DNA from: Geobacter sulfurreducens PCA
GTDB taxonomy: Bacteria > Desulfobacterota > Desulfuromonadia > Geobacterales > Geobacteraceae
Length of the DNA stretch: 32,000 bases
Direction: 5' to 3'
Assembly: GCF_000007985.2 (NCBI RefSeq)
Contig: NC_002939.5
Span: 1,440,001-1,472,000 of the forward strand
Shown here: piece after piece, positions 7,971-28,449 of the stretch
Position numbering within the stretch: the stretch's first letter is position 1
Layout of the letters: each line of letters begins with the position of its first letter
Program-made: the position numbers and the translations under genes
Notes under the pieces: generated by a model
Databases searched by the model: none
Told to the model about the DNA's origin: nothing
What the model saw: the letters and a program-made list of their open reading frames with translations, nothing else

Positions 7971-7995
7971 GGCACCCCGCCAAGTCGAGGTATTC

Positions 7996-10280: not shown

Positions 10281-12584
10281 ATGCCCGTGATGAAGAGGTC
10301 TGAAGACGGTTCGCTCCTGATCCCCGCCGATCTGCTGGGACCCCTCGGACTTGCGCCCGGCGACCGGGTGGCGGTGGAGGCGGACGCAGAGGGGCGCCTG
10401 GTGCTGACCCGGTCCGCGGCCCGGGAGCCATCGGTTGAGGTGAGCCTCCGGCAGGCCATTGCGCGCAAGAACCTTGAGACCCCCATGCAGTTCATCAAGG
10501 GGGTGGGGCCGAAGATGGCCGAGATCCTGGCGCGGAAGGGGATCGTCACCGTGGAGGATGCGCTCTACCTGCTCCCGAACCGCTACGAGGACCGCCGCCA
10601 AGTGGTGCCCATGAACCGGCTCCGCCCCGGTGAGACCTGCGTGTTTGCAGGGGAGGTGGTGTCGGCCGACGTGGTGACCACCAAGGGGGGGCGCCGCTTC
10701 TTCGAGGTGATGGCGCGGGATGCGAGCGGTGTCATGTCCTTCAAGTGGTTCAACTACCATGCGGCCTTCATGCGCAAGGCCTGGCAGCCGGGCCGGCGGG
10801 GAATCTTCACCGGCCAGGTGACCCAGTACGGTCTCCAGCGTGAGGTACATCATCCGGACGTTGACTGGCTGGCCGAGGGGGAGACGGTGGAGGCGGCCAT
10901 GGCGCGGGACCCGGTGGGATTCGGCCGGCTGGTGCCGGTCTATCCGCTCACCGAGGGGCTGAACCAGAAGGCGCTGCGCAAGGTCATGAAGGAGGTGGTG
11001 GACCGCTTCGCCCCCTGCGTGGAGAGCGCCCTGCCGGCCCGGGTGATCCGTGAGCGGGCGCTGCTGCCCCTGGCCGAGGCCCTGGGAGCGGTCCATTTCC
11101 CGGCTGCCGACGCCGATCCGCGTGCCCTGGAGGAGGGGCGGGACCCGGCCCACCGGACCCTGGTTTTCGACGAATTCTTCTTCCTGGAGCTGGGGCTGGC
11201 GCTCAAGCGGCGGGGAGTGACCCTGGAACCGGGAATCGCGTTTTCCGTGAACCACACATACACCAAGCCGCTCCTGAAGCTGCTTCCCTTTGCCCTGACA
11301 GAGGCCCAGCGCCGGGTCCTGGCCGAGATCAAGGCCGACATGATGGCGCCCCACCCCATGCACCGGCTGGTGCAGGGGGACGTGGGCTGCGGCAAGACCC
11401 TGGTGGCGCTCCTGGCGGCGCTGGTGGCGGTGGAGAACGGCTACCAGGTGGCCATCATGGCTCCCACCGAGATCCTGGCCGAGCAGCACTACCTGAACAT
11501 CCACCGCTGGTGCGAGCAGTTGGGGGTGACCGTGGCGCTCCTCACGTCGTCCCTGAAGGGAAAGGCCAAGGCCGGAGCCCTGGAGCGGGTGGCGCGGGGC
11601 GAGGTGCAGATCGTGATCGGCACCCACGCAGTGATCCAGGACAAGGTGGAGTTCCACCGGCTGGGGCTCGGCATCGTGGACGAGCAGCACCGTTTCGGCG
11701 TGCTCCAGCGGGGGCTCCTGCGCAAGAAGGGGGAAAACCCGGACATCCTCGTGATGACCGCCACCCCGATCCCGCGCACCCTGGCCATGACCGTGTTCGG
11801 CGACCTGTCCCTGTCGGTCATCGACGAGCTCCCGCCGGGCCGCACCCCGGTGGAGACGAAGATCTGCACCGATTCCCGCCGCCGGCAGGTCTACGGCATC
11901 ATCCGCGACGAAGTGGCCGCGGGGCACCAGGCCTACGTCATCTACCCCCTGGTGGAGGAGTCGGAGAAGAGCGAGCTCAAGGCGGCCACCCAGATGGCCG
12001 AACACCTGGCCAATGACGTGTTCCCGGATCTGCGCCTCGGTGTTCTCCACGGCCGGATGAAGCCCGAGGAGAAGGAGGCGGTGATGCGCTCCTTCAAGGG
12101 ACGGGAGATCGACATCCTGGTTTCCACCACGGTCATCGAGGTGGGGATTGACGTGCCCAACGCCACGGTGATGGTGATCGAGCACGCGGAGCGGTTCGGC
12201 CTTTCCCAGCTCCACCAGCTGCGGGGGAGGGTGGGGCGCGGCAGTGCCACGTCCCGCTGCATCCTCATGGCGTCGGACCGGTTGTCCGATGACGGGGTCA
12301 AGCGGCTGCGGGTGATGGAATCGACCACCGACGGCTTCAGGATCGCCGAGGCTGATCTGGAGATCAGGGGGCCGGGCGATTTCCTCGGCACCCGCCAGGC
12401 GGGCATCCCCGATTTTCGCGTGGCCAACATCCTGCGGGACGGCCGCATCCTGGAAGAGGCCCGGGCCGAGGCTTTCGATCTGGCGGAGCGGGACCCTGAG
12501 TTGCGGGCCCCCGGCCACGAACCGCTCCGGGAGGAGCTGGCGCGGCGCTGGGGCGGCCGGCTGGAACTGGCCGGGGTGGCCTGA
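10281..12584 (+). CDS. recG: ATP-dependent DNA helicase RecG (start uncertain: open frame from 10140; ATGs at 10188, 10281, 10290)
   Basis: Motif I GDVGCGKT, motif II VDEQHRFG, TATPIPRT, VIEVGIDVPNA, QLRGRVGRG, plus the N-terminal wedge region (FIKGVGPKMAEIL...PNRYEDRR). GAAGGA lies 7 nt before ATG 10281. Confidence 0.9.
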   Translation: MPVMKRSEDGSLLIPADLLGPLGLAPGDRVAVEADAEGRLVLTRSAAREPSVEVSLRQAIARKNLETPMQFIKGVGPKMAEILARKGIVTVEDALYLLPNRYEDRRQVVPMNRLRPGETCVFAGEVVSADVVTTKGGRRFFEVMARDASGVMSFKWFNYHAAFMRKAWQPGRRGIFTGQVTQYGLQREVHHPDVDWLAEGETVEAAMARDPVGFGRLVPVYPLTEGLNQKALRKVMKEVVDRFAPCVESALPARVIRERALLPLAEALGAVHFPAADADPRALEEGRDPAHRTLVFDEFFFLELGLALKRRGVTLEPGIAFSVNHTYTKPLLKLLPFALTEAQRRVLAEIKADMMAPHPMHRLVQGDVGCGKTLVALLAALVAVENGYQVAIMAPTEILAEQHYLNIHRWCEQLGVTVALLTSSLKGKAKAGALERVARGEVQIVIGTHAVIQDKVEFHRLGLGIVDEQHRFGVLQRGLLRKKGENPDILVMTATPIPRTLAMTVFGDLSLSVIDELPPGRTPVETKICTDSRRRQVYGIIRDEVAAGHQAYVIYPLVEESEKSELKAATQMAEHLANDVFPDLRLGVLHGRMKPEEKEAVMRSFKGREIDILVSTTVIEVGIDVPNATVMVIEHAERFGLSQLHQLRGRVGRGSATSRCILMASDRLSDDGVKRLRVMESTTDGFRIAEADLEIRGPGDFLGTRQAGIPDFRVANILRDGRILEEARAEAFDLAERDPELRAPGHEPLREELARRWGGRLELAGVA

Positions 12585-14884: not shown

Positions 14885-14935
14885 AACCCGCCGTTTCCAT
14901 CCCTTGATGTCATGCCGGAATCCATTGGCCCGTCA

Positions 14936-14963
14936 TTGCGCAAGCTCGTTACGGGTCTATACT
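14936..14963 (+). promoter_or_regulatory. Candidate sigma-70 promoter of the RND efflux operon (TTGCGC-16 nt-TATACT)
   Basis: Read by eye: -35 at 14936-14941, -10 at 14958-14963. About 150 nt upstream of the preferred start of the outer membrane factor gene. Confidence 0.4.
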
Positions 14964-14969
14964 TTTCGC

Positions 14970-14999
14970 AGAATATTCTCCGCTGCTGTGGAATATTCT
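14970..14999 (+). promoter_or_regulatory. Twin palindromic boxes AGAATATTCT / GAATATTCT spaced exactly 20 bp apart (candidate operator)
   Basis: GAATATTCT occurs at 14971-14979 and 14991-14999. The first is embedded in the perfect 10-nt palindrome AGAATATTCT (14970-14979). They lie immediately downstream of the candidate -10. Confidence 0.35.
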
Positions 15000-15112
15000 T
15001 CACCGCCCGGCGGTCAGCTACGATGCGCCGCACGGACTTTCAACCGGTTACGGCATGGCACGGCCTGTGTAATGCCGATCTGAGACCCTATCCAGAGGTA
15101 CCGGAGACTGAA

Positions 15113-16393
15113 ATGATCACTTGCATCCTGAGGACCCTTCTCGCATCGGCGGTTTGCGTCCTGCTCCTTGCCGGCCCGGCCCGGTCCGGAGATGCTCCGG
15201 CCGGGGAGGATCTGAACTCCCTGGTGAGCCGCGCCCTTGCCGTCAACCCGGAGCTCAAGGCTTCCGAGGCCCGGTGGGAGATGTTCCGCAACCGCGTGGC
15301 CCAGGCCGGCGCCCTGGCCGACCCCATGCTCATGTTCAAGCTCCAGAACTTTCTCCTGCGCGATCCCCTGGACAGCCGGCGGGACCCCATGAGCCAGCGG
15401 GTGATCGGCATCTCCCAGGAGCTTCCCTTCTGGGGCAAGCGCGCCCTGAAGACCGAGATCGCCGACCGGGAGGCCGAGGCCCTCAGGTGGCAGGTGGAGG
15501 AGCGCAAGCTGGAGCTGGCCCGCATGGTCAAGGAGACCTGGTACCAGCTCTACCTGGTTGATCGGGAGCTGGATATCGTGGAACGCAACATCCGGGTGAT
15601 GGACGACTTCGTCACCCTGGCCGAAACCCGTTACTCGGTGGGGCAGGGGGCCCAGCAGGACGTGTTCAAGGGACAGGTGGAGCGTTCCCGGATGCTCGAC
15701 ATGCAGATCGCCCTCGCGCAGCAGCGCACGAGCCTCCAGGCCACCCTCAACACCCTCCTCTTCAGGCCGGCCGAGACCCCGGTGGGGCGCGTGCCGGACC
15801 TGGAGATCCGCCCCATTTCCCTCTCAGCCGCCGAGTTGCGTGCCCTGGCCGAGGAGAACCGTCCCCAGTTCAGGAGCGTGCGGGCCCAGTTGGAAAAGGG
15901 GGCGGCAGGGCACCGGCTGGCCGGCCTGGAATCATTCCCGGACGTGACCCTCTCCCTTGAGTACATGCAGCGGGACCCCTCCATGGATGAGCGGGGGTAC
16001 GACATGTACTCGGTGGGGCTCACCTTCAATCTGCCGGTGCAGCGGGAGCGCCGCCGCGCCATGGCCCGGGAGTCCGTGGCCGAGACGGACATGGCCCGGG
16101 CCGAGCTGAACACCCTGAACAATGCCATTGCCTTGGGCATCGCCGACAGCCTGGCCCGGCTGGAACGCAGCGAAAAACTGGCGCAGCTCTACCGCACGGG
16201 GATTATCCCCCAGGCCGAGCAGTCGCTGGAATCGGCCACCATCGGCTACCGGGTGGGGAAGGTCGATTTCCTCTCCCTGCTGGACGCCCGGGTTACGGTC
16301 TTCAATTACGAACGCCAGTACTACGAGGCCCTGGCCGAGCACGGCATGCGCCGGGCCCAGCTGGAGGCGCTGGTGGGGAGGGAACTGGAGTGA
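15113..16393 (+). CDS. cusC: Outer membrane efflux protein (TolC/OMF family) of heavy-metal RND system
   Basis: Track ORF 14912-16393. ATG 15113 begins a signal peptide [26 protein letters not shown] (no lipobox). Two-repeat OEP pattern. Stop overlaps the next gene's frame (GTG 16390). Confidence 0.85.
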
Positions 16394-16416
16394 GCCGCCA
16401 TCGCGAGGGATATGCC

Positions 16417-17772
16417 ATGTTGTTCACGAGAAGGATCATGCTGCCGCTGGTGGCGCTTCTGCTGGCCCTGGTCGCTGCTGGCTGCCAGAAGCAGGGGGCC
16501 GAAGCCCCCAAAGGGGACGGCCACGACCACGCCGCCGAGGCCAAGGTCGAGTACACCTGCCCCATGCACCCCTTCATCATCAAGGACAAGCCCGGATCAT
16601 GTCCTATCTGCGGCATGGACCTGGTGAAGAAGGTCGCCGGAGCCGGCGCCGACGCCAAGGAACTGGAGAAGCTCGCCCAGGTAGCCATCCCCACCACCCA
16701 GATGGTGATGGCCAACGTGGCGACCCAGCCCGTGACGGCCAAAAGCCTCCAGAAGGAGATCACCGCCACGGGGATCGTGGCCTACGACCAGCGGCGCCAG
16801 GCCAAGGTAACCGCCTGGGTGGCGGGGCGGATCGATCGGCTCAACGTCAACGCGGTCGGCGACTTCGTCTCCAGGGGACGGCCGGTGGCGGAACTCTATT
16901 CGCCCGACCTGGTCTCGGCCCAGCAAGAGTATCTCCTGGCCCTCAAGAGCCGCGACCGGCTCAAGGACTCTCCCATCGCCTCCATCTCCCAGGGGGGAGA
17001 GGGGCTCGTGGCTTCCGCTCGGCAGCGGCTCCTGCTCATGGGAGTGAAGGAACAGCAGATCGCCGGTCTGGAAAAGGCGGGACAGCCCAACATCAAGCTC
17101 CCCGTCTATACCCCCCTCTCCGGCGTGGTGATCGAAAAGATCGCCATCGAAGGGCAGTACGTGAACATGGGCGATCCCCTCTTCACCATCGCCGACCTCT
17201 CCACGGTCTGGGTCGAGGCCGAGATCTACGAGAGCGACGTCTCCTTCGTCAAGGTGGGGCAGCGGGTCGAGGTGACTTCTGCCTCGTGGCCGGGCAAGAC
17301 CTTTGCGGGGCGCATCTCCCTGGTCTATCCGTTCCTCGATCCCAAGACTCGGACCATCAAGGCCCGGATCGAGCTCTCCAACCCTGGGCTGAAGCTGAAG
17401 CCCGACATGTTCGTCAACGCCGCCATCAAGATGCCCCTGGGCTCGGCCGTTGTCGTCCCCGCTGCGGCGGTGATGGATACCGGAACCCGGCAGGTGGTCT
17501 GGGTGCAGGTGAAGGAGGGGACCTTCCAGCCCCGCGACGTGAAGGTGGGGGCGAGGGTCGGCGACGAGGTGCAGGTACTCTCGGGGCTGACGGCGGGCGA
17601 AGTGATCGCCTCCTCCGGCGCGTACCTCATCGACTCGGAATCGCAGTTGCGGGGCGGCTCCGGCACGGGCCACGAAGGGATGCCCGGCATGGAAAAGGAA
17701 GGGGTGAAACCGGCCCCGGCCGCGCCTCCCGCCAAGAAGAACGACATGGGCATGGATGACATGAAGATGTGA
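16417..17772 (+). CDS. cusB: RND periplasmic adaptor (membrane fusion protein), CusB-like, with N-terminal Cys4 metal-binding ribbon and Met/His-rich C-tail
   Basis: ATG 16417 gives a lipoprotein signal [31 protein letters not shown] heavy-metal-binding domain. HlyD-like barrel-sandwich/beta-barrel core. Tail [11 protein letters not shown]...[10 protein letters not shown]. Confidence 0.9.
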
Positions 17773-17782
17773 TGGAGCCGTC

Positions 17783-20700
17783 ATGATCGAGAAAATCATC
17801 GAATATTCGGCCCGCAACCGGGTCATCATCCTCATGCTTTTTGCCCTGGTCATCGGCTGGGGGATCTGGGCCGTCTACAAGACGCCGGTGGATGCGATCC
17901 CCGACCTCTCCGACAACCAGGTGATCGTTTTCACCGACTTTCCCGGCCGCTCCCCCCAGGTGGTGGAGGACCAGGTGACCTATCCCCTGGCGGTGAACCT
18001 CCAGGGCCTTCCCCGGGTAAAGGCGGTGCGGGCGTCGTCGGCCTTCGGCTTTTCGATGATCTACGTGATCTTCGACGACAAGGCAGACATCTACTGGGCC
18101 CGGACCCGGGTGCTGGAGCGGCTGAACTACGCGGCCTCGCTCCTGCCCGCCGGCGTGGTGCCGACGCTGGGCCCCGACGGCACCGGCGTGGGGCACGTCT
18201 TCTGGTACACCTTGGAAGGGAAGGGGTACGACCTGGAACAGCTCCGGACCCTGCAGGACTGGTTCGTCCGCTACCAGCTCAACACCGTGCCCGGCGTGGC
18301 CGAGGTGGCCTCCATCGGCGGCTTTGTCCGCGAATACCAAGTCGACCTGGACCCCCACAAGCTCTTTGCCTATAACATCAAGGTCTCCGACGTGATGGAG
18401 GCGATCAAGGCGGCCAACAACGACGTGGGAGGCCGCCTGCTGGAACAGGCCGATGCCGAGTACCTGATCCGGGGCCGGGGCTACGTCAAGTCGCCCGCGG
18501 ACATCGAAAACATCGTGGTCACCGCCGACATGCGCGGCACCCCGGTCTACGTTAAGAACCTCGGCACCGTCCAGATGGGGGGCGCCATCCGCCGTGGACT
18601 CCTGGACCTGAACGGCGAGGGCGAGGTCGTCGGCGGGATCGTGGTCATGCGCTACGGCGAGAACGCCAAGGACGTCATCGATCGGGTGAAGGAGAAGATC
18701 ACCGCCCTGGAGAAGGGGCTGCCGCCGGGGGTGAAGATCAAGACCGCCTACGACCGCTCCGACCTGATCGAGCGGGCGATCCATACCCTCAAGCGGGCCC
18801 TGACCGAAGAATCCATTGTCGTCTCCCTGGTGGTGCTCGTGTTCCTGCTCCATTTCCAGAGCGCCCTGGTGATCGTCCTGACCCTGCCCATCGCGGTGCT
18901 CATCGCCTTCATCACCATGAAGCTCATGGGAGTCAGCTCCAACATCATGTCCCTGGGAGGGATCGCCATCGCCATCGGCGTGCTGGTGGACGCCGGGGTC
19001 ATCATGGTGGAGAACTGCTACCGCCACCTGTCCGAACTGCCCGAGGAGGAGCGGAAGGCGCGGCGGCTTGAGGTGATCATCGCCAGCGCCAAACAGGTGG
19101 GACGGGCCATCTTCTTCTCCCTGGCCATCATCGTCCTCTCCTTCGTGCCGGTCTTTCTCCTGGAGGGACAGGAGGGGAAACTCTTCCATCCCCTGGCCTT
19201 CACCAAGACCTTCTCCATGGTGGGCTCGGCCCTGATCGCCATCACCCTGGTGCCGGTTCTCATGTATTTCTTCATGCGGGGCAAGATGCCGCTGGAGAGC
19301 GCCAACCCGGTTTCCCGCTTCTTCATCCGGCTCTACGGGCCGGTGATCAGGTGGTGCCTGAAGTGGAAAAAGACGGTCATCGCCCTGAACATGGTGGCTC
19401 TGCTCGTTGCCGTGCCCCTCTACATGAAGCTGGGCTCCGAGTTCATGCCGCCCCTGGATGAGGGGTCGCTCCTCTACATGCCGGTGACCCTCCCCAACGT
19501 CTCCATCACGGAGGCCAAGCGGATCATCCAGGTCCAGGATGCCGTCATCAAGAGCCACCCCGAGGTGGAGCTGGTGCTCGGCAAGGTGGGGCGGGCCGAA
19601 ACCTCCACCGACCCGGCGCCGGTCTCCATGTTCGAGTCGATCATCATCCTTAAGCCCAAGGATACATGGCGGCCCGGCATCACCAAGAACGACATCGTCA
19701 GCGAGCTGGACGCCAGGCTGCAGCAGATCGGGGTGCGCAACGGCTGGACCCAGCCGATCATCAACCGGATCAACATGCTCTCCACCGGGGTGCGGACCGA
19801 CCTGGGGCTCAAGATCTTCGGCAACGACCTGAACGTCCTGCGCGATCTGGCGGTGCAGGCGGAAGGAATTCTCAAGGGGGTCAACGGCGCGGCGGACGTG
19901 GTGGCCGAGCGGGTCACCGGCGGCAACTACCTGGACATTGATATCGACCGCGAGGCGGCGGCCCGCTATGGAGTCAAGGTAGCCGACGTGCAGGAGGTGA
20001 TCGCCACGGCCCTGGGAGGCGAGACGCTCACCACCGCCGTTGACGGCCGCAACCGCTTCCCGATTCGGCTCCGCTACCTGCGCGACTACCGGGACAGCAT
20101 CCCGGCCATTCAGCGCATCCTCGTTTCCGGCATGGGCGGTGCCCAAGTGCCCCTGTCCCAGGTAACCAAGCTCAAGGTCTCCACCGGCGCGCCGGAGATC
20201 GCCAGCGAGGGGGGACTGCTCCGCTCCATCGTCTTCCTCAACGTCCGGGGCCGCGACATGGGGAGCTTCATGAAGGATGCCCAGGCCGTGGTCGAGAAGC
20301 AGCTGAAGCTGCCGCCGGGCTACTATGTGTCCTGGTCGGGGCAGTGGGAGAACCAGGTGCGGGCCAAGGCGCGGCTCCAGGTCCTGATCCCGGCCGGAAT
20401 CGTGATCATCTTCATCCTGCTCTACTTCACCTTCCACTCGGCCCTGGAGGCGAGCATGGTGATGCTCTCGGTTCCCTTCGCCCTGGTGGGCGGGGTCTAC
20501 CTGGTGGCCGCGCTCGGGTATAACATGTCGGTGGCGGTCTGGGTCGGCTTCATCGCCCTCTACGGCGTGGCCGTGGAAACCGGAGTGGTGATGGTCATTT
20601 ATCTGCACGAGGCCCTGGACAAAAAACTCATGGCCGGTCCGGTGACAGAGCAGGACATCTACGACGCCACCTACGAGGGGGCGGTGCTCCGCCTGCGGCC

Positions 20701-20920
20701 CAAGCTCATGACCGTGGCGGTGGCTCTCATGGGGCTTGTGCCGATCATGTGGTCCAGCGGCACCGGCGCCGACGTCATGAAACCCATCGCGGCACCCATG
20801 ATCGGCGGCATGATTTCCTCCGCCATCCACGTGCTGATCATGACGCCGGTCATCTTCGTGCTGATGAAAAAGCACGATCTGAAGAAGGGAAAGCTGAAGT
20901 ATTCGGGAATGAAGCACTAA
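17783..20920 (+). CDS. cusA: Heavy-metal efflux RND pump, CusA-type (Cu(I)/Ag(I))
   Basis: 1045 aa, 12-TM RND layout. The TM4 segment GIAIAIGVLVDAGVIMVEN resembles the CusA signature more than the CzcA-type DFGxxxDGAxxxxEN (from memory of these families). Confidence 0.93.
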   Translation: MIEKIIEYSARNRVIILMLFALVIGWGIWAVYKTPVDAIPDLSDNQVIVFTDFPGRSPQVVEDQVTYPLAVNLQGLPRVKAVRASSAFGFSMIYVIFDDKADIYWARTRVLERLNYAASLLPAGVVPTLGPDGTGVGHVFWYTLEGKGYDLEQLRTLQDWFVRYQLNTVPGVAEVASIGGFVREYQVDLDPHKLFAYNIKVSDVMEAIKAANNDVGGRLLEQADAEYLIRGRGYVKSPADIENIVVTADMRGTPVYVKNLGTVQMGGAIRRGLLDLNGEGEVVGGIVVMRYGENAKDVIDRVKEKITALEKGLPPGVKIKTAYDRSDLIERAIHTLKRALTEESIVVSLVVLVFLLHFQSALVIVLTLPIAVLIAFITMKLMGVSSNIMSLGGIAIAIGVLVDAGVIMVENCYRHLSELPEEERKARRLEVIIASAKQVGRAIFFSLAIIVLSFVPVFLLEGQEGKLFHPLAFTKTFSMVGSALIAITLVPVLMYFFMRGKMPLESANPVSRFFIRLYGPVIRWCLKWKKTVIALNMVALLVAVPLYMKLGSEFMPPLDEGSLLYMPVTLPNVSITEAKRIIQVQDAVIKSHPEVELVLGKVGRAETSTDPAPVSMFESIIILKPKDTWRPGITKNDIVSELDARLQQIGVRNGWTQPIINRINMLSTGVRTDLGLKIFGNDLNVLRDLAVQAEGILKGVNGAADVVAERVTGGNYLDIDIDREAAARYGVKVADVQEVIATALGGETLTTAVDGRNRFPIRLRYLRDYRDSIPAIQRILVSGMGGAQVPLSQVTKLKVSTGAPEIASEGGLLRSIVFLNVRGRDMGSFMKDAQAVVEKQLKLPPGYYVSWSGQWENQVRAKARLQVLIPAGIVIIFILLYFTFHSALEASMVMLSVPFALVGGVYLVAALGYNMSVAVWVGFIALYGVAVETGVVMVIYLHEALDKKLMAGPVTEQDIYDATYEGAVLRLRPKLMTVAVALMGLVPIMWSSGTGADVMKPIAAPMIGGMISSAIHVLIMTPVIFVLMKKHDLKKGKLKYSGMKH

Positions 20921-20955
20921 GCGAAATCAACACCACGAAAAAAGGAGAACGCATC

Positions 20956-21429
20956 ATGAAGAAACTTGCAGTTATCATCGCGGTTGCAGCGCTCGCCCTG
21001 GCGGCGCCCCTCACGGTTATGGCCGCTGACCACGGCAAGGGGGGTATGAAGCATGGCGACCATGCCGATCACGGCACCGCGGCTCACGAAGAAGTGGTCG
21101 ACGGCGTCAAGGCTACCTTCAAGATCATGAGCATGGCCGAGCACATGAAAGCCATGAACATGGAATTGCCCAAGGGAATGAAGGAGACCCATCACATTGC
21201 CGTGGAGTTCAAGGATGCCAAAACCGGCAAGGCCATTACCCAGGGCGAGGTGAACCTGAAGGTCCAGGGGCCGGATAACAAGGCCCAGACCAAGGCGCTG
21301 ATGGCAATGCAGGGACACTTCGGCGCCGACTTCGACCTCTCCAAAAAGGGGAAATACGGCATCATGAGCAAGTTCAAGGTGAAGGACGGCACGGTGCGCA
21401 GCGCCAGGTTCTGGTACGAAGTGAAGTAG
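20956..21429 (+). CDS. Secreted His/Met-rich putative metal-binding protein (157 aa), last gene of the efflux operon
   Basis: Track ORF 20749-21429 is over-extended. ATG 20956 follows AAAGGAG. Signal peptide MKKLAVIIAVAALALAAPLTVMA. HGKGGMKHGDHADHGTAAHEE, MSMAEHMKAMNM, MAMQGHFGADF. Only 35 nt after cusA. Confidence 0.7.
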   Translation: MKKLAVIIAVAALALAAPLTVMAADHGKGGMKHGDHADHGTAAHEEVVDGVKATFKIMSMAEHMKAMNMELPKGMKETHHIAVEFKDAKTGKAITQGEVNLKVQGPDNKAQTKALMAMQGHFGADFDLSKKGKYGIMSKFKVKDGTVRSARFWYEVK

Positions 21430-21450
21430 GGAAGGGCGCCGGAAGGTAAC

Positions 21451-21491
21451 AATGACGAAAGCCCCCGCGTGAAGCAGGGGCTTTCGTCATT
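21451..21491. terminator. 15-bp perfect hairpin between convergent genes (probable bidirectional terminator, no strong U-tract)
   Basis: AATGACGAAAGCCCC-cgcgtgaagca-GGGGCTTTCGTCATT. Confidence 0.55.
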
Positions 21492-21501
21492 GCGGAACGG
21501 T

Positions 21502-22941
21502 TCAGCGCAGGTGCTTCGAGGTGGTCAGCACCGATCCCGACACGGTGCCGTTGATGGTCTTGACGGTAACGGCGGTTCCCCTGGCAAAGGCGGGGCTCGT
21601 GGCGACGATGCGCGTGGGAGACCAGGAGATGACCGTTGCTTCGGTTGTGCCGGCAAAGATGCCGAGTCCCGCTTTGTAGCCGGTGGGTGGCGCAGGGCCG
21701 AAGCCGCTGCCCGTGATGGTGAGGGTCCCGGCGGCGCCGAGCGTGATCCGGCTGATCCGCAGCGGCGGCACCACCGTCAGGGTGGCCCGGTTGCTCTGCT
21801 TGTCGCTCTTGACCACCCGCAGCGTATAGTTGCCCGCGGTCAGGGCCGGCAGCAGAATACGGATTTCACGGTCGGTAATGGCGGCCGGTTGGATGGTCAC
21901 CGGCGACCGGCCGTTGTCGAGGACAACCACTGACGAGTAGGTCTGGCCGTCCCCGCCGACATTGACGAAGCCCGAACCCGTGAGGGTCAGGTTCCGGGCG
22001 CTGCCGGCCGGAAGGGTGTACGCGCTCTGCTCCTTCAGGTAGGGGACCGTTGCGGACCAGGGGCCGGCGGAGGCCGCCAGCCACGAAACCTCAAGCCATG
22101 AATAGTGGCAGCCAATGCAGTCCCAGTTGCTCCCCACGTGCCCCCACCCCGCTTGCTCCTTGAACGGGACGATGATGCCGATATTCTCGGCCGTGGGGGA
22201 GTCCATCTGGATGTTGTGGAGCGTGTCCGGCCCGTGGCAGGCCTCGCAGCTCCGGATAGTGGTGCTTGCCGGGTCGGATCCGGGGTGGCAGACCGCGCAG
22301 TCCAGCTGGGTCGCGTGGTGGGTGTCGGCGTTGTCGAACACCGGCCTGACCACGCCGGTCCGGGGATCGACGGCCGTCGGGTCCGCCTGGTGGCAGGCGG
22401 CGCATCCGTTGACGGTGATCGTTTTACCGGTCACCGGGTCCTTGACGTCATAACCGTGGTGATGGGGCGCCATGGAGCCGCCGAGGTCATAGGAAGGTAT
22501 ATAGTGGCCGTCGCCGGGATTGTCGACGAAGCTGCCGTGGCAGGACTTGCAGTCGAGCTGGAGGGCCGCCCGGGTCGAATGGTGGGGGGACGACACGTGG
22601 CAGGCGCCGCAGGTGCGGAAGTCCTGGAGGGTATACCCCCCCGAGCCGTCGGGGATGAGCACGTGGCATCCGTTGGCCAGGCTGGCCGGGTTTCCGGTGT
22701 AGTTGACGCAACTGACCGGCGGGGTGGTCGTGTTGATGAGGGCGTGGTGCCGGAAGGCGATGGTGTCGCTGCCCGTGTGGCAGACGGTGCAGTCCTCCGT
22801 GGACTGAAAGCTGGGAACGGTGTCGAACATCCCCAGGTACTGATTGGCGGGCGGAGGCAGCACCTGTGACCAGGAGATGGAAGCGAGGGCCGCCACCCCT
22901 GCCGCTGCCGACAATATGCCCCACAGACTCGGTAACGCCAT
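21502..22941 (-). CDS. Secreted multihaem c-type cytochrome (7 CXXCH + 1 CX13CH) with two C-terminal IPT/TIG-like Ig-fold domains
   Basis: 479 aa. Signal peptide MALPSLWGILSAAAGVAALASISWSQ. CTVCH, CGACH, CKSCH, CAACH, CAVCH, CEACH, CIGCH, plus C78-X13-C92H93. C-terminal repeats NLTLTGSGF... and TLTITGSGFG... RBS GGAGGAA. Confidence 0.9.
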   Translation of the reverse strand: MALPSLWGILSAAAGVAALASISWSQVLPPPANQYLGMFDTVPSFQSTEDCTVCHTGSDTIAFRHHALINTTTPPVSCVNYTGNPASLANGCHVLIPDGSGGYTLQDFRTCGACHVSSPHHSTRAALQLDCKSCHGSFVDNPGDGHYIPSYDLGGSMAPHHHGYDVKDPVTGKTITVNGCAACHQADPTAVDPRTGVVRPVFDNADTHHATQLDCAVCHPGSDPASTTIRSCEACHGPDTLHNIQMDSPTAENIGIIVPFKEQAGWGHVGSNWDCIGCHYSWLEVSWLAASAGPWSATVPYLKEQSAYTLPAGSARNLTLTGSGFVNVGGDGQTYSSVVVLDNGRSPVTIQPAAITDREIRILLPALTAGNYTLRVVKSDKQSNRATLTVVPPLRISRITLGAAGTLTITGSGFGPAPPTGYKAGLGIFAGTTEATVISWSPTRIVATSPAFARGTAVTVKTINGTVSGSVLTTSKHLR

Positions 22942-22986
22942 GACCGTTCCTCCTGAACGAGAGTCGGCGCCGGTGCCGTCGGATCG

Positions 22987-23016
22987 GACCGCCCCTCCGT
23001 CGGAGAAGGGGCGGTC
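22987..23016 (-). other. Very stable GC-rich stem-loop in the 5' leader of the cytochrome gene
   Basis: GACCGCCCCTTC-tccgac-GGAGGGGCGGTC (about 12 bp including one G-U), 45 nt upstream of ATG 22941. No U-tract on either strand. Confidence 0.5.
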
Positions 23017-23110: not shown

Positions 23111-23138
23111 AGTGTACCGGCGGCACCTTTGCTGTCAA
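23111..23138 (-). promoter_or_regulatory. Candidate sigma-70 promoter for the cytochrome gene (TTGACA-16 nt-TACACT)
   Basis: Perfect -35 TTGACA (23138-23133) with a weaker -10 TACACT (23116-23111). Lies between the TerC stop and the cytochrome start. Confidence 0.4.
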
Positions 23139-23174: not shown

Positions 23175-23912
23175 TCACTCCGTGTAGGGCTGGTGCAGCT
23201 TGACCGGTTTTCCTTTCGCACGCATCTTCATGTTGAGCATCTCGACCCCCACGGAGAAGGCCATGGCAAAGTAGATGTACCCCTTGGGAATGTGCATGTC
23301 GAGGCCGTCCCCGATGAGCGCCACCCCGATCAGGATGAGGAAGGAGAGGGCAAGCATCTTGATGGTCGGGTGCGAATCCACGAAGGCGCTGATCTTGCCG
23401 GCGAAGAGCATCATGAACCCAACGGCGATGACTACGGCCGCCACCATGACCGCCAGCTGGTTGGCCATGCCGATGGCGGTGATGATCGAGTCGAGAGAGA
23501 ACACGATGTCCAGCAGAAGGATCTGGAAGATGATGGCCCCGAAGGACGCCGCTGCCTTGACCGTACCGTGGCTTTCGGCCCCTTCCAGCTTGTCGTGGAT
23601 CTCCATGGTGCTCTTGGCCAGGAGGAAGAGGCCGCCGGCGATCAGGATCAGATCGCGGCCGGAAATATCCGTTTCCAGCACCGACAGCAGCGGCTCCGTG
23701 AGTCCCATGAGCCAGGCGAGGGAGAACAGCAGCGCCACCCGCGTGAACATGGCCAGGCCCAGGCCGGTGAGGCGGGCCTTTTCCTGCTGTTCCGCCGGCA
23801 GTTTGGATGAAAGGATTGAGATGAAGATGATGTTGTCGATGCCCAGGACGATCTCCAGGGCGGTGAGGGTGGCCAGGGCAAGCCAGGCCTGGGGGTCGGT
23901 CAATAATTCCAT
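23175..23912 (-). CDS. TerC family integral membrane protein (YkoY/Alx-type, putative Mn/metal exporter)
   Basis: 245 aa. N-terminal signature ALEIVLGIDNIIFISIL and second repeat LLLDIVFSLDSIITAIG, about 7 TM helices. Preceded by a yybP-ykoY riboswitch. Confidence 0.92.
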   Translation of the reverse strand: MELLTDPQAWLALATLTALEIVLGIDNIIFISILSSKLPAEQQEKARLTGLGLAMFTRVALLFSLAWLMGLTEPLLSVLETDISGRDLILIAGGLFLLAKSTMEIHDKLEGAESHGTVKAAASFGAIIFQILLLDIVFSLDSIITAIGMANQLAVMVAAVVIAVGFMMLFAGKISAFVDSHPTIKMLALSFLILIGVALIGDGLDMHIPKGYIYFAMAFSVGVEMLNMKMRAKGKPVKLHQPYTE

Positions 23913-23948
23913 TGATCCATGTCTCCTTTGTCAATAACGCCGGGGCAC

Positions 23949-24090
23949 AAAAAAACCTCTACCTCCGGCTCTGTGAGCTCGTCAGGTAAAGGTCTTGCCT
24001 GCCGGAAACAAAGGCCCCACGCCCGGGCAGCGATGCCGTCTTGGCGGACGATGGGTCGGCCCCTGTGGGACCGATGGCTACTCCCCTTTA
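23949..24090 (-). promoter_or_regulatory. yybP-ykoY (Mn2+) riboswitch: aptamer about 24090-23986 plus intrinsic terminator 23992-23949
   Basis: Minus strand reads AAAGGGGAGTAGCC ... GGCAGGCAAGACCTTTAC. This matches the conserved 5' AAAGGGGAGUAGC and 3' GCAAGACCUUU of the class (compared from memory with the L. lactis/E. coli examples). It is followed by CCTTTACCT-N19-AGGTAGAGG-TTTTTTT. Confidence 0.85.
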
Positions 24091-24102
24091 CGGAACGGGG
24101 AA

Positions 24103-24132
24103 ACTATACGCAACCGGTTCGAGGGATGTCAA
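24103..24132 (-). promoter_or_regulatory. Sigma-70 promoter driving the riboswitch/TerC transcript (TTGACA-18 nt-TATAGT)
   Basis: Perfect -35 TTGACA (24132-24127), -10 TATAGT (24108-24103), about 12 nt upstream of the aptamer 5' end. Confidence 0.6.
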
Positions 24133-24239
24133 TCATGAAATTGCCGGGTTCCAGCCCTCCGGCCGCAGGATCTTTTCTTGAATTCGGTCAATGCTTTGCT
24201 CTATTCTGTAAATTCGTACACATCTCAGGGAGGGTAGCG

Positions 24240-25106
24240 ATGAACATCAGAACGATGACGGCAGTGGCGGCAGTCCTCTCGGTAGCGGCGGTTGCAGGTT
24301 GCGGCGGCGGTGGCGGCCAGTCGGCGGCGCCCCAGACGACCATCAGCGGCACGGTGGCGGACGGCTACCTCTTCAAGGCCGAGGTGTTCCTGGACCGGAA
24401 CGGCAACTATCAGCAGGATTCGGGCGAACCGGCCACGACCACCGATGTGAACGGCAGATTCTCCCTGGCGATCACCCCGGGCGAGGAAGCGCTCTACCCG
24501 GTGGTGGCCCGCGCGGTTGGTTCCAACACCTATGACATGGACGCCCCGGCCCAGCCCCTGACCCAGGGCTACATCCTCACGGCCCCCCGGGGAATGCACG
24601 GCTTCATCAGTCCCATCTCCACCCTGCTGCGCGAGAAGTACGAAACCGGCAACTATGCATCCGTCAGCGATGCCATGCACGAGATCCGGCAGCAACTGGG
24701 CCTCACGGTCCTGAACCCAGCCAGCGCTGTCCTGTCCACGGACGATTTCGTGGCACTGTCCGGCTCCACGAACACGACGACCCACACCGAATATCAGAGG
24801 GTCCGGACCGTGGCCGGGGTGATCGCGGACCTCATGGCCGGGCAGATCTCCTCCGATGCGGCCGTCAACGTCAACCGGTACCGCTACATCATGGGGCGGA
24901 TCAACCTGAGTCTGCCCCAACTCTGCTTCGAGGCCACCCAGAGCGCCAACCCCGACGTGGCGAACATGCGGACGCGCTACATCGGCACCATCCCGGGCAC
25001 CTTCGTCAACATGACGGGCATGTTCCGCAACATGACCACGACCACCTTCTGGAACCTGTCGGGCTCCACCATGGTCCCCCGCAACCGGGGCGGCATGATG
25101 CGCTGA
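24240..25106 (+). CDS. Hypothetical lipoprotein (288 aa) with Met-rich C-terminal tail
   Basis: Track ORF 23919-25106 overlaps the riboswitch and is over-extended. ATG 24240 follows AGGGAGGG. Lipobox AVAGCGGGGG. N-terminal segment ISGTVADGYL..AEVFLDRNGN...TDVNGRFSL resembles a carboxypeptidase-regulatory-like beta domain. Tail NMTGMFRNMTTTT...GGMMR. Confidence 0.7.
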   Translation: MNIRTMTAVAAVLSVAAVAGCGGGGGQSAAPQTTISGTVADGYLFKAEVFLDRNGNYQQDSGEPATTTDVNGRFSLAITPGEEALYPVVARAVGSNTYDMDAPAQPLTQGYILTAPRGMHGFISPISTLLREKYETGNYASVSDAMHEIRQQLGLTVLNPASAVLSTDDFVALSGSTNTTTHTEYQRVRTVAGVIADLMAGQISSDAAVNVNRYRYIMGRINLSLPQLCFEATQSANPDVANMRTRYIGTIPGTFVNMTGMFRNMTTTTFWNLSGSTMVPRNRGGMMR

Positions 25107-25133
25107 CCCGCGCCTGTCGCCGGCGTTTCGACG

Positions 25134-25168
25134 GGGCCGTTTCCTTTGGGGAGCGGCCCTGTTTTGTT
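25134..25168 (+). terminator. Probable intrinsic terminator after the lipoprotein gene
   Basis: GGGCCG-N14-CGGCCC followed by TGTTTTGTT. Confidence 0.45.
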
Positions 25169-25207
25169 GCAGAATAGTCCACAGGCTTTCTGGAGATTAT
25201 TCTGCAA
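25167..25207. promoter_or_regulatory. 41-bp inverted repeat TTGCAGAATA-N21-TATTCTGCAA (candidate enhancer/UAS for a sigma-54 activator)
   Basis: Perfect 10-nt arms (the stem extends to about 13 bp). Centre is about 92 bp upstream of the -24 element at 25279. Confidence 0.45.
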
Positions 25208-25249
25208 TCTCCTCCCCGTGATATGTTTCCCCACTTTTAGTTGTTGATA

Positions 25250-25262
25250 AATCAATGGATTA
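25250..25262 (+). promoter_or_regulatory. IHF-consensus site AATCAATGGATTA (WATCAANNNNTTR)
   Basis: Exact match to the IHF core consensus, located between the inverted repeat and the -24/-12 element. Confidence 0.35.
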
Positions 25263-25277
25263 CGCAAGCGGGCACAC

Positions 25278-25293
25278 TGGCACGCCAATTGGA
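25278..25293 (+). promoter_or_regulatory. Candidate sigma-54 promoter TGGCACG-CCAA-TTGGA
   Basis: Perfect -24 TGGCACG with correct 10-nt spacing. The -12 element is TTGG instead of TTGC. Lies 54 nt upstream of ATG 25347. Confidence 0.5.
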
Positions 25294-25346
25294 TTAGACT
25301 CCGTCGTAACCCGGCGGAACCGAAGCCGCCTTCAAAGGAGCCTGTC

Positions 25347-25751
25347 ATGGGTGCAATGAAAAAAGGAACCATCGGTATCGTGGTCGCGGCAGTGATCGTG
25401 GTGGTGCTCTGTGCATTTGCGGTGCGGCTGGAGGCGTCGGCTGACAGCGTGGCCGTCCTGCGGGCCCAGGGCATGACCTGCGGCAGCTGCGCCGGCAAGA
25501 TCGAGAAGACGCTCGGCAAACAGGCGGGCGTCGCCAGAGTCCAGGTGGACGTGGATGCCGGCAAGGTCGTGGTCGGCTTCGACTCCCGCACCGTGCGGCC
25601 CGAGATTCTGGCCGAACGCGTTACCGGCGCCGGCTACGGATGCAGCATCCTCCAGGTCCTCACCCCCGAGGAGTACCGGGCGCAGACCGGCAGTACCACC
25701 GCCTTTGTCCGGCAGGGTGGCGGGTGCGGCGGAGGCTGCTGCGGTAAGTAG
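25347..25751 (+). CDS. Membrane-anchored heavy-metal-associated (HMA) domain protein with poly-Cys C-terminus
   Basis: 134 aa. N-terminal TM/signal anchor GTIGIVVAAVIVVVLCAFAV. HMA motif GMTCGSCAGKIE. Tail GGGCGGGCCGK. RBS AAAGGAG. Confidence 0.85.
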   Translation: MGAMKKGTIGIVVAAVIVVVLCAFAVRLEASADSVAVLRAQGMTCGSCAGKIEKTLGKQAGVARVQVDVDAGKVVVGFDSRTVRPEILAERVTGAGYGCSILQVLTPEEYRAQTGSTTAFVRQGGGCGGGCCGK

Positions 25752-25867
25752 GGCCCGGCTGGTCGGGGGCTCGTTGAGTTTCATCGGCCCCTCCGCCGCA
25801 CGAACACAACCAACACTCGCTCAGAAACACTCCCGGCAGGGAGAAACGCGCAAGGGGGATATTCGCA

Positions 25868-26344
25868 ATGCAGACCGGAACAGTAAAGCAGATGATGAAG
25901 CTCGGGGTGATCGCTCTGGCGGCCGTGCTGGTCGTGGCTGGAGCGGTGACTGCCTTCAGCCTGCCGGGGTTCGGCAAGTTCGAAAAGGCCAAGGTCGTGA
26001 AGGGTGCCGTGAGCATTCCCCTGGCCGACCTGCAGGACGGCAAGGCCCGTTTCTACCGCCACAGCGAAGGGGGGCGCGATATTGCCTTCTTCGCGGTCAA
26101 GGCCCCTAACGGCAGCTACCGGGCCGCCTTTGACGCCTGCGAGGTCTGCTTCCAGGAGAAGAAGGGCTACGTGCAGGATGGCGGCTTCATGACCTGCCGC
26201 CAGTGCAACAAGAAGTTCGCCACCGACCGCATCGGCGAGGGGCCGGGCGGCGGATGCAACCCGGCGGCCATCCCCGCCCGGCAGGCCGGCGGCAATCTGG
26301 TTATCAACGTAGCCGACATCCGCACCGGCGCCCGGTTCTTCTGA
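25868..26344 (+). CDS. Single-TM Cys-rich protein, DUF2318-like (CxxC-x15-CxxC-x16-C)
   Basis: 158 aa. TM helix LGVIALAAVLVVAGAV. CEVCFQEKKGYVQDGGFMTCRQCNKKFATDRIGEGPGGGCNP. The family assignment is from memory of DUF2318 proteins that accompany FtsX/ABC pairs. Confidence 0.7.
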   Translation: MQTGTVKQMMKLGVIALAAVLVVAGAVTAFSLPGFGKFEKAKVVKGAVSIPLADLQDGKARFYRHSEGGRDIAFFAVKAPNGSYRAAFDACEVCFQEKKGYVQDGGFMTCRQCNKKFATDRIGEGPGGGCNPAAIPARQAGGNLVINVADIRTGARFF

Positions 26345-26385
26345 GCCCGGCAGCCTGACAACAGTACACAGGAACGGGGAGCTCC

Positions 26386-27546
26386 ATGAAGCTGCATAAC
26401 ATCTCGATCAACAACCTGCGCCGCCGCCGGGCCAAGATGCTCTTTCTCACCGTGGGGCTCGCCGTGGGGATTGCCACCATCGTCACCCTCATGACCCTCA
26501 CCGCCTCCATGTCCAACGACATCGGGCGCAAGATGGACGAATTCGGCGCCAATATCCTGATCACCCCCCAGAGCAACGACCTCTCCATGAGCTACGGGGG
26601 CATCAGCCTGGGCCGGGTCACCTTCGACCAGCGGGAGATCCGTCAGGAGGACCTGGCGCGGATCACCGCCATCAAGAACAACAAAAACATCCTGGCTGTA
26701 TCCCCCAAGGTTCTTGGCGGGGTACGATTCGGCGACAAGGACGCCCTCCTGGTGGGGGTCGACTTCGAGAGCGAACTCAAGATGAAACAGTGGTGGCGGG
26801 TTTTCGGCGAGGTGCCCAAGGACGGCGCGGGCGTGCTCCTGGGCAGTTCCGCTGCGGACACGGCCCATCTTACCCCGGGCGACGCCGTCACCATTGCCGG
26901 ACGTTCCTTCACCGTCACCGGCGTACTCGATCAGACCGGCTCCCAGGACGACTCCCTCATCTTCATGCCCCTGGCCGACGCCCAGAAACTGCTGGGCAAG
27001 GAAGGGCGGATCACCCTGGTGGAAGTGGCGGCCCTCTGCTCCGGCTGCCCCATCGGCGACATGGTGGTGCAGATCGCCGAAAAGCTCCCCGAAGCAAAGG
27101 TCACCGCCATCCAGCAGGTGGTCGAGTCGCGGCTCAAGGCCCTGGACCATTTCCGCCGCTTCGCCTACGCCGTGGCCGGCGTGGTCATCTTCATCGGCTC
27201 ACTCATCGTCTTCGTCACCATGATGGGGAGCGTCAACGAGCGCACCACCGAGATCGGCGTGTTCCGCGCCATCGGCTTCCGCAGGAGCCACATCATCCGG
27301 ATCATCCTGCTGGAGGCGGCCCTGGTGAGCGTCCTGGCCGGGCTCGTCGGCTACGCCGCCGGCATGGGCGGGGCCACCGTGGCGCTCCCGTTCATGGCCG
27401 AAAGCAAGGACGCCGTCCTGGTCTGGGATTCTACGGTCCTGGCCGGGTCGGTCCTCCTCTCCCTGGTGGTGGGGATGCTGGCGAGCCTCTACCCGGCGCT
27501 CCACGCCAGCAGGATGGACCCCACCGAGGCGCTCAGGGCGCTGTAA
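26386..27546 (+). CDS. ABC transporter permease, FtsX/MacB-LolCE type
   Basis: 386 aa. TM1, then an extracytoplasmic domain of about 220 aa, then 3 C-terminal TM helices (FtsX domain, ...EIGVFRAIGFRRSHI...). Ends ...MDPTEALRAL, typical of this family. Confidence 0.9.
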   Translation: MKLHNISINNLRRRRAKMLFLTVGLAVGIATIVTLMTLTASMSNDIGRKMDEFGANILITPQSNDLSMSYGGISLGRVTFDQREIRQEDLARITAIKNNKNILAVSPKVLGGVRFGDKDALLVGVDFESELKMKQWWRVFGEVPKDGAGVLLGSSAADTAHLTPGDAVTIAGRSFTVTGVLDQTGSQDDSLIFMPLADAQKLLGKEGRITLVEVAALCSGCPIGDMVVQIAEKLPEAKVTAIQQVVESRLKALDHFRRFAYAVAGVVIFIGSLIVFVTMMGSVNERTTEIGVFRAIGFRRSHIIRIILLEAALVSVLAGLVGYAAGMGGATVALPFMAESKDAVLVWDSTVLAGSVLLSLVVGMLASLYPALHASRMDPTEALRAL

Positions 27547-27578
27547 CGTACACCGCAACCATAGTTCGGGGGAACGCA

Positions 27579-28283
27579 ATGGCACTCATACAAATCAATG
27601 ATCTCACCAGGCACTACGCCGGCGGCGACGAGACCGTCCAGGCGCTCCGGGGCGTAAGCCTGACCATCGAAGACGGCGAGTTCGTCACCATCATGGGCCA
27701 GTCCGGATCGGGCAAGAGCACGCTCCTGTCGGTCCTGGGGGGAATGAACCACCCCACCGCCGGCGAGGTGGAAATGGCCGGAGTCCGGCTCTACGAGCTC
27801 TCCGGCGAGCAACTGGCCGACTTTCGCGCCGAGAAGCTCGGCTTCGTGTTCCAGTCGTTCCACCTGGTGCCGTACCTGACGGCCCTGGAGAACGTCATGC
27901 TTCCCCTGTCCATTACCAGGATGAAGAACCGCGACAAGATCGCTGCGGCACGTGAAGCCCTGGAGCGGGTCGGGCTGGGCGGCAAGGCCGACCGGCTCCC
28001 CAACCAGCTCTCCGGCGGCGAGCAGGAGCGGGTCGCCATCGCCCGGGCCATCGTCAAGAAGCCCCCCATCATCCTGGCCGACGAGCCCACCGGCAACCTG
28101 GACACGAAAACCAGCGAAGAGGTCATGGACCTGTTCCGCCGCCTCAACGCCGCGGGCCACACCGTTGTCATGGTCACCCATAACCCCGACAACTGCGCCT
28201 ACGCCGACCGGACCATCCGCCTGCGCGACGGCCTGGTTGTCGAAGACGGCGTGGCCGACGCAACTACGCGAACCGCCGCCTGA
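27579..28283 (+). CDS. ABC transporter ATP-binding protein (MacB/LolD-like)
   Basis: Track ORF 26790-28283 is over-extended. ATG 27579 follows GGGGGAA. Walker A GQSGSGKST, Q-loop, signature LSGGEQER, Walker B ILADEPTGNLD, H-loop VTHN. Confidence 0.95.
   Translation: MALIQINDLTRHYAGGDETVQALRGVSLTIEDGEFVTIMGQSGSGKSTLLSVLGGMNHPTAGEVEMAGVRLYELSGEQLADFRAEKLGFVFQSFHLVPYLTALENVMLPLSITRMKNRDKIAAAREALERVGLGGKADRLPNQLSGGEQERVAIARAIVKKPPIILADEPTGNLDTKTSEEVMDLFRRLNAAGHTVVMVTHNPDNCAYADRTIRLRDGLVVEDGVADATTRTAA

Positions 28284-28374: not shown

Positions 28375-28449
<75 letters not shown>

Follow-up and report, generated by a model that had tools for sequence, protein, structure and literature searches.

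OmcZ is the most conductive cytochrome wire of Geobacter and a target for bio-electronic engineering. In Geobacter sulfurreducens it (GSU2076; PDB 7LQ5 and 8D9M) is made as a 50 kDa precursor that is converted to a 30 kDa form when the subtilisin-like protease OzpA removes the tandem immunoglobulin (Ig)-like domains; the mature protein ends at about F280-S284 (HWSWF-GNSS), its haems are bis-His coordinated by ligands from the same subunit, and the loop C77-C92 sits in the filament subunit interface (Wang et al., 2022, eLife, PMC9473688). OzpA-driven cleavage suffices for OmcZ self-assembly in vitro. In canonical omcZ loci, the next genes encode OzpA, a Peptidase_S8 protein with an I9 inhibitor domain, and then a peptidyl-prolyl isomerase (PPIase). 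Two OmcZ-family members were counted in G. sulfurreducens by Butler et al. (2010); GSU1334 was described as the only other protein of this organism with an OmcZ-like AlphaFold structure (Wang et al., 2022), and a survey of the Desulfuromonadia lists a 'GSU1334/OmcZ' group. Here, GSU1334 and its surroundings are analysed in a stretch of 32 000 nucleotides of the G. sulfurreducens PCA genome (NC_002939.5, positions 1,440,001 to 1,472,000), which is referred to as the window and to which all coordinates of this locus refer.

A first-pass annotation of the window had described, at 21502-22941, a secreted cytochrome with eight haem sites and two C-terminal IPT/TIG-like repeats, and had suggested that it could be a paralogous, OmcZ-like cytochrome. 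An open reading frame (ORF) with these features is indeed present, on the minus strand, which had not been specified, and encodes 479 amino acids followed by a stop codon. The encoded protein proved identical to AAR34710.1 ('Cytochrome c', Geobacter sulfurreducens PCA) in an exact-sequence look-up, and each of the four primers used for the knockout of GSU1334 (Shelobolina et al., 2007, PMC1829397) matches in or around the ORF with 0 mismatches. The closest database match is 97% identical and comes from another G. sulfurreducens genome in which the gene order is the same. The G+C content at third codon positions (0.86) is typical for true genes in this GC-rich genome, and a Shine-Dalgarno sequence, AGGAGG (22949-22954, minus strand), can be read 7 nt 5' of the ATG. 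The ORF is GSU1334, a stand-alone paralogue of the nanowire cytochrome OmcZ; we hold this with high confidence, and nothing that was found contradicts it. It is a rediscovery, as GSU1334 is a named, knocked-out and published gene whose paralogy to OmcZ was already known.

Homology to OmcZ and domain architecture

When GSU1334 was compared with the PDB sequences using phmmer, its residues 11-477 matched the OmcZ precursor (8d9m_A, 473 aa; E=2e-152) and its residues 27-283 the mature filament subunit (7lq5_A; E=3e-92). The similarity therefore runs over the full length, well beyond the CXXCH motifs, and end-to-end homology of this kind rules out a chance origin of the motif pattern; together with the published OmcZ-like structure, it also bears out the proposed paralogy. 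Global identity is 52.5%, with regional values of 55% (haem domain), 47% (linker and first TIG domain) and 58% (second TIG domain). The two proteins share the same succession of signal peptide, octahaem domain, linker and two IPT/TIG domains, with collinear Cys and His ligands and an atypical long loop for the interface haem. OmcS and OmcE, which are, as GSU1334 is predicted to be, extracellular multihaem c-type cytochromes of G. sulfurreducens, differ in having an unrelated fold and haem arrangement, inter-subunit His coordination and no TIG pro-domain (Wang et al., 2022); they gave no phmmer match to GSU1334 among the PDB sequences, and were not in the best 50 Foldseek matches.

The signal peptide that had been claimed for the N-terminus is supported by the AlphaFold model, in which residues 3-24 form a hydrophobic helix that leads into a stretch of low confidence (23-29), and by the alignment of residues 1-26 with residues 1-26 of OmcZ, its signal peptide. 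The segment consists of residues 1-26 (MALPSLWGILSAAAGVAALASISWS, then Q; 22864-22941, minus strand), the cleavage site being placed from these data and not by a dedicated predictor.

The octahaem domain comprises residues 27-283 (22093-22863, minus strand), as delimited by motifs, alignment and Foldseek, and contains seven CXXCH motifs, starting at residues 51, 111, 131, 180, 215, 232 and 275, one CX13CH motif and eight distal His. The protein has exactly 16 cysteines, every one of them in a haem motif, and these span residues 51-279. The eight haem sites (seven CXXCH plus C78-X13-C92-H93) are thus as first annotated, within 229 residues instead of the approximately 240 given. The motifs align one-to-one with those of OmcZ, whose first-pass description as an octahaem protein with seven CXXCH and one long motif agrees with the published structure, where the long motif is CX14CH (Wang et al., 2022), in contrast with CX13CH in GSU1334. 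In the pairwise alignment, 16/16 haem Cys and 17/17 His of the OmcZ haem domain are kept in GSU1334. Across 71 homologues, the 16 Cys, the eight proximal His and the eight distal His (65, 66, 121, 146, 208, 209, 242 and 268) are invariant, which fits a haem domain with eight bis-His c-type haems and intrasubunit coordination, as in OmcZ.

The atypical haem-binding loop C78-X13-C92-H93 (CVNYTGNPASLANGCH; 22663-22710, minus strand) is homologous to the C77-C92 loop of OmcZ. A long loop at the interface haem is found in 24 of the 71 aligned homologues, the other 47 having a plain CXXCH, and the surrounding region (residues 67-106), with 70% identity, is the most OmcZ-like stretch of the haem domain. 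Residues ~150-170 (22432-22494) are hypervariable among GSU1334 alleles. The PCA protein carries in this loop, in comparison with OmcZ, an extra HHH at 160-162, where the other alleles have LPHG or LPYG; located beside the haem chain, these histidines might affect metal binding or haem ligation.

The linker, residues 284-300 (EVSWLAASAGPWSATVP; 22042-22092, minus strand), lies at the position of the OzpA cut in OmcZ. Here GSU1334 reads HYSWLEVSWLAASAGPWSATVP where OmcZ reads HWSWF-GNSS, and at the position of WF-GNSS itself has WLEVSWLAASAG, six residues longer. The OmcZ-type cleavage-site sequence (WF-GNSS; family motif SW[FY]GN), the motif being kept by most close OmcZ homologues, is consequently not matched by the linker of GSU1334 (YSWLEVSWLAASAG). 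The linker is predicted to be flexible, with a predicted local distance difference test score (pLDDT) below 50 at residues 289-291 of the AlphaFold model, and is 100% identical in four GSU1334 alleles that diverge by up to 15% elsewhere. Cleavage by OzpA would still be possible in spite of the non-OmcZ linker. The repeat SWLEV/SWLAA within it resembles an old duplication of five codons, with weak support at the DNA level.

The C-terminal part consists of a first IPT/TIG domain (residues ~301-392; 21766-22041, minus strand) and a second one, TIG2 (residues ~393-479; 21505-21765, minus strand), which ends in a basic tail, SKHLR, and contains the best Pfam TIG stretch (404-469). The two IPT/TIG-like repeats of the first-pass annotation were recovered by Pfam as two matches to PF01833 (43.2 bits against a cut-off of 20.9) and by AlphaFold as two beta-sandwiches at ~301-391 and ~395-470 with pLDDT of about 90. 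The model was built from the alignment of 71 homologues, without haems; it has a pLDDT of 81.3 and a predicted template modelling score (pTM) of 0.75, and its only low-confidence stretches are 23-29 and 289-291. In a Foldseek search of the PDB, the top matches were the OmcZ structures 7lq5_A and 8d9m, with target-normalised template modelling (TM) scores of 0.81 and 0.78, respectively, and a root-mean-square deviation of 3.5-4.1 A over ~260 columns, followed by the tandem IPT domains of plexins and MET, which are matched by the first TIG domain. The haem domain is accordingly modelled in the OmcZ fold. The calculated mass of the GSU1334 holo-precursor is 52.3 kDa and that of its haem-only form would be 32-33 kDa, near the 51.5 and 32.6 kDa of OmcZ. 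NCBIfam offers no model for the family, its best match to GSU1334 being a CoaZ repeat below threshold.

Protease-isomerase cassettes and the GSU1334 lineage

GSU1334 differs from OmcZ in having neither ozpA nor a PPIase gene next to it. The first-pass annotation had seen no protease gene nearby, and this proved correct for the whole window: Pfam on every plausible listed ORF and tblastn with an OzpA-like protein revealed no S8 protease, OzpA or PPIase. Likewise, no ozpA/PPIase cassette was found in seven other GSU1334-type loci.

The cassette is widespread in the family. A scan of genome contigs, which did not pick up the canonical omcZ of G. sulfurreducens, provided a distant set of 18 loci (L001-L018) with omcZ homologues at 30-37% identity, and in 15 of them, from several phyla, tblastn located OzpA-like and PPIase genes directly downstream of the omcZ homologue. 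In a further locus, L001 (Nitrospirota), a protease gene alone was found, not adjoining but ~9 kb downstream (10001-11614 and 20627-21613 in that locus), and the remaining two contigs were too short to judge the downstream genes. Such operons of Nitrospirota, Desulfobulbaceae, Sedimenticola and others encode proteins with the domain architecture of GSU1334 and, unlike its locus, retain the protease and prolyl isomerase genes as the next ones downstream. Among six closer Geobacter-type contexts examined, three have the omcZ-ozpA-PPIase cassette; OzpA-like and PPIase genes also follow the omcZ homologue in L022, L023, L029 and L030.

GSU1334 is not alone in its arrangement. The Geotalea uraniireducens-type proteins P0024 and P0026 have the OmcZ architecture without an adjoining subtilisin, and their linkers share W-AASA..P..ATVP with that of GSU1334 (69% linker identity). 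They differ from GSU1334 in their overall sequence (45% identity), in the plain CXXCH at the interface haem and in the small Paired_CXXCH cytochrome gene that follows. In L028 (6418-7125) and L031 (3299-4033), a multihaem Paired_CXXCH cytochrome of 235-244 aa is encoded directly after the omcZ homologue, in the place of ozpA; this neighbour may represent a different partner arrangement within the OmcZ family.

A closer counterpart is P0015, encoded on a metagenomic Geobacter-like contig (L033). As at the GSU1334 locus, a gene of the TerC family (87.5% identical) lies upstream, a convergent gene for a His/Met-rich protein similar to GSU1333 (48% identical) lies downstream, and no protease gene follows. 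P0015 is thus the positional orthologue of GSU1334, although it is only ~50% identical to it, has a plain CXXCH (CLDCH) at the interface haem and a shorter linker (HDSWLGFAG), and its locus contains an extra gene for a 147-aa membrane protein between the TerC-family and the cytochrome genes. Since this locus also lacks a protease, the arrangement without one is older than the G. sulfurreducens group. Compared with the TerC-family protein encoded next to it, the cytochrome has diverged at a much higher rate.

The matches listed from a database of 5.8 billion proteins included five clusters with >=85% identity to GSU1334, and the next match was at 53%. The GSU1334 clade was monophyletic in 300/300 bootstraps and sits on a long branch. 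A resolved sister group was sought and had to be abandoned, as support was split between P0015 (154/300 bootstraps) and the group of P0017, P0024 and P0026 (110/300). Pairwise ratios of non-synonymous to synonymous substitution rates (dN/dS) among four GSU1334 alleles range from 0.10 to 0.34, with the haem and C-terminal parts alike, indicating a gene that selection preserves and that is not in decay. GSU1334 has also been flagged as unusually polymorphic between strains PCA and KN400, and in long-term evolved lines. For the signal peptide segment, dN/dS is near or >1 in comparisons with the most divergent allele, P0005.

The core of TIG2 (residues 407-470; 21505-21693) is anomalous. Among 70 homologues, OmcZ and GSU1334 are reciprocal best matches in this segment, with 72% identity, whereas P0007, which is the nearest orthologue of OmcZ overall and is 75% identical to it in the haem domain, has no more than 56% identity in TIG2. 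A recent conversion event involving omcZ and GSU1334 was considered as the source of their two unusually similar segments and rejected, because the fraction of identical codons among identical residues is not raised there (0.54 for residues 67-106 and 0.48 for residues 407-470, against 0.60 elsewhere). However, saturation of synonymous sites is seen already when OmcZ is compared with its nearest orthologue, and an older conversion may have occurred. The likeness of the two TIG2 domains could derive from such an old conversion or from a shared lineage-specific constraint, such as the same maturation or export partner.

Maturation and role of the precursor

In the proposed mechanism, the GSU1334 precursor would be exported by the Sec pathway and would then receive its haems in the periplasm; by analogy with OmcZ, it may be delivered to the outer surface by the same route. 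There, the close-packed haem chain would pass electrons to insoluble or surface-bound acceptors. If unprocessed, the protein would otherwise be a ~52 kDa holo-protein, either monomeric or associated with the surface through its TIG domains. The protein has been detected in PCA proteomes. According to Shelobolina et al. (2007), the rate of U(VI) reduction was roughly halved in a gsu1334::kan mutant, which was also deficient in the reduction of Fe(III) hydroxide, while that of Fe(III) citrate was unaffected; in this GSU1334 differs from OmcZ, its mutant phenotype concerning U(VI) and Fe(III) oxide and not current production.

Some points weigh against this picture. Neither Lys nor Arg occurs in the n-region of the PCA signal peptide (MALPSLWGIL...), an uncommon state among Sec substrates; the other GSU1334 alleles carry R4/R7 or R4/R5 in this region. 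The surface location rests on analogy with OmcZ and on a PSORT prediction given by Shelobolina et al. (2007), and the knockout appears in their text without complementation, so that polar or indirect effects are possible. Finally, on electrodes GSU1334 transcripts were at ~50 reads per kilobase per million (RPKM), ~75-fold lower than those of omcZ at 4200 RPKM (Wang et al., 2022).

The main question is whether the precursor is cut, as the first-pass annotation had stated for OmcZ, whose Ig-like part is indeed cut off by a subtilisin-like protease in the published conversion from 50 to 30 kDa. With no dedicated ozpA or PPIase gene and a different linker, any maturation of GSU1334 to a ~32-33 kDa form must take place in trans. 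In favour of such processing are a linker that is predicted to be flexible and does not vary among alleles, the conservation of the interface loop and a TIG2 resembling that of OmcZ; evidence against it includes the changed cleavage site, the lack of a cognate protease or PPIase, and the fact that GSU1334 is missing from the published filament preparations. We consider the chances of proteolytic processing in vivo to be evenly balanced.

One explanation, which we hold at slightly short of an even chance, is that GSU1334 works uncut, its TIG domains being retained as a tether or to keep the protein monomeric, so that it would act as a ~52 kDa terminal reductase and form no polymer. The loss of an ozpA-PPIase cassette that accompanies the family across phyla and the replacement of the linker both speak for this, and so do the further protease-less members, namely P0024 from Geotalea uraniireducens, P0026 and the syntenic P0015. 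A phenotype on U(VI) and Fe(III) oxide and not on electrodes, as recorded by Shelobolina et al. (2007), points in the same direction. The dN/dS of the C-terminal part (0.09-0.31) is what would be expected if the TIG domains belonged to the working protein; however, purifying selection would be equally expected for a pro-domain whose sole use lay in folding or export. Moreover, a linker that is flexible and invariant among alleles has the look of a conserved site more than of a neutral spacer.

The alternative in which GSU1334 provides a second nanowire is doubtful. It supposes that the linker is cut in trans by OzpA (GSU2075) or by another subtilisin, and that the ~32-33 kDa domain then self-assembles or co-polymerises with OmcZ. 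Full conservation of the haem ligands, an OmcZ-like predicted fold and a retained interface-forming long loop, 70% identical to that of OmcZ, would all be in keeping with a filament subunit, and the flexible, invariant linker with a site of cleavage. The reciprocal match between the TIG2 domains (72%, versus 56% for the nearest OmcZ orthologue) would be expected if both pro-domains served one species-specific partner, and in OmcZ cleavage by OzpA alone is enough for self-assembly in vitro. Set against this, neither WFGNSS nor SW[FY]GN is kept in the linker, the window contains no gene for a cognate protease or PPIase, and OmcZ was the sole 30 kDa cytochrome seen in filament preparations from electrode-grown cells (Wang et al., 2022). 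The narrower claim that a processed GSU1334 would polymerise into OmcZ-like homopolymer filaments also appears rather unlikely. The filament preparations without GSU1334 came from conditions in which its expression was 75-fold lower.

A still more specific scenario can be sketched, which we regard as speculative and clearly unlikely as a whole. GSU1334 would represent an orphan branch of the OmcZ family that has lost a protease and an isomerase of its own and relies in trans on OzpA and the PPIase from the omcZ operon, its TIG2 being kept similar to that of OmcZ by docking to a shared, species-specific partner in maturation or export; cut at its own conserved linker, it would yield a second filament, maybe a co-polymer with OmcZ, for the reduction of U(VI) or metal oxides, tied to the metal-homeostasis genes nearby.

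Genomic neighbourhood and significance

GSU1334 lies in a metal-homeostasis neighbourhood. On one side are cusC, cusB and cusA (14912-20920) and GSU1333 (20956-21429, plus strand), which is convergent with GSU1334; on the other is GSU1336, a TerC-family membrane protein (23175-23912, minus strand; Pfam TerC E=2e-45) encoded upstream of GSU1334 at a distance of 233 bp. The cluster continues with a lipoprotein (24240-25106), a CopZ-like HMA protein with an N-terminal extension (25347-25751) and an FtrD-like protein (25868-26344), and includes, within 23175-28283, a MacB/FtsX protein with an ATP-binding cassette (ABC) ATPase. GSU1333 is a His/Met-rich periplasmic protein of 157 aa, with nine His and 12 Met and a weak YtkA-like match below threshold; encoded beside cusA, it has the appearance of a so far uncharacterised metal-binding protein of the periplasm. 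Genes of the GSU1336 and GSU1333 types are syntenic in all GSU1334 loci as well as in L033.

That GSU1334 belongs functionally to this island, reducing or detoxifying toxic metals at the surface without a role in respiration, seems improbable. The TerC/GSU1334/GSU1333 order is kept in all G. sulfurreducens-type loci, beside cusCBA, a locus whose cytochrome has no more than ~50% identity still shows two of the three flanking genes, and genes for the CopZ-like, FtrD-like and MacB-type proteins are close by; the impaired U(VI) reduction of the mutant, as described by Shelobolina et al. (2007), would also agree with such a role. Adjacency, however, differs from co-regulation. A joint decrease in anode biofilms was seen for GSU1333, GSU1330 and GSU1340, and GSU1334 was not reported among them; GSU1334 is convergent with GSU1333, with a strong hairpin between the two, and a literature search turned up no metal-response expression data for GSU1334 or its neighbours.

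The hairpin (21449-21493) separates the stop codons of the convergent genes GSU1333 and GSU1334, is perfect over 20 bp and can fold on both strands, with -38 (z = -9.7) and -33.4 kcal/mol (z = -7.4) for RNA of the minus and the plus strand, respectively. It is likely to be a bidirectional terminator; a simple terminator scan found nothing, missing this hairpin because it has no T-run. Between the TerC-family gene and GSU1334, a putative sigma-70-like promoter, TTGACA-16-TACACT, matches 10/12 consensus positions (23111-23138, minus strand), and a GC-rich hairpin of 12 bp (22987-23016, minus strand; -26 kcal/mol, z = -2.9) lies between this match and the ribosome-binding site; it could be a terminator of the TerC-family gene or a structure of the 5' leader. 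A gsu1336-gsu1334 co-transcript was predicted by Shelobolina et al. (2007). Rfam revealed no riboswitch upstream of either gene, its sole match in the window being a tRNA-Gly (28375-28446).

At 7464-8724 (plus strand), after genes for a histidine kinase and a sigma-54 response regulator, a redoxin/AhpC-TSA thiol-disulfide oxidoreductase and a DsbD/CcdA-type membrane protein are encoded. Redoxin and DsbD/CcdA-type proteins are typical helpers of cytochrome c maturation; this pair, 13 kb from GSU1334, is probably unrelated to it.

That GSU1334 is a redundant, poorly expressed duplicate drifting to loss of function is highly improbable and largely refuted by the selection analysis: its low transcript level on electrodes, its high polymorphism and the loss of basic residues from the PCA signal peptide would suit decay, but dN/dS is 0.10-0.34 with haem ligands intact in all alleles, the protein is detected, the knockout has a phenotype, and an intact positional orthologue exists at ~50% identity.

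As the gene, its paralogy and its knockout had already been published, the value of the present results lies in confirmation and in comparative details, and what they add is the status of GSU1334 as an orphan without the cassette, its replaced yet conserved linker, the purifying selection acting on it, its positional orthologue and the TIG2 anomaly. GSU1334 retains the whole haem chain but departs from OmcZ in its linker, in its mutant phenotype and in the lack of a dedicated protease, and so is a ready-made comparison with OmcZ, and a natural one for what decides the cleavage and polymerisation of OmcZ-type pro-cytochromes.

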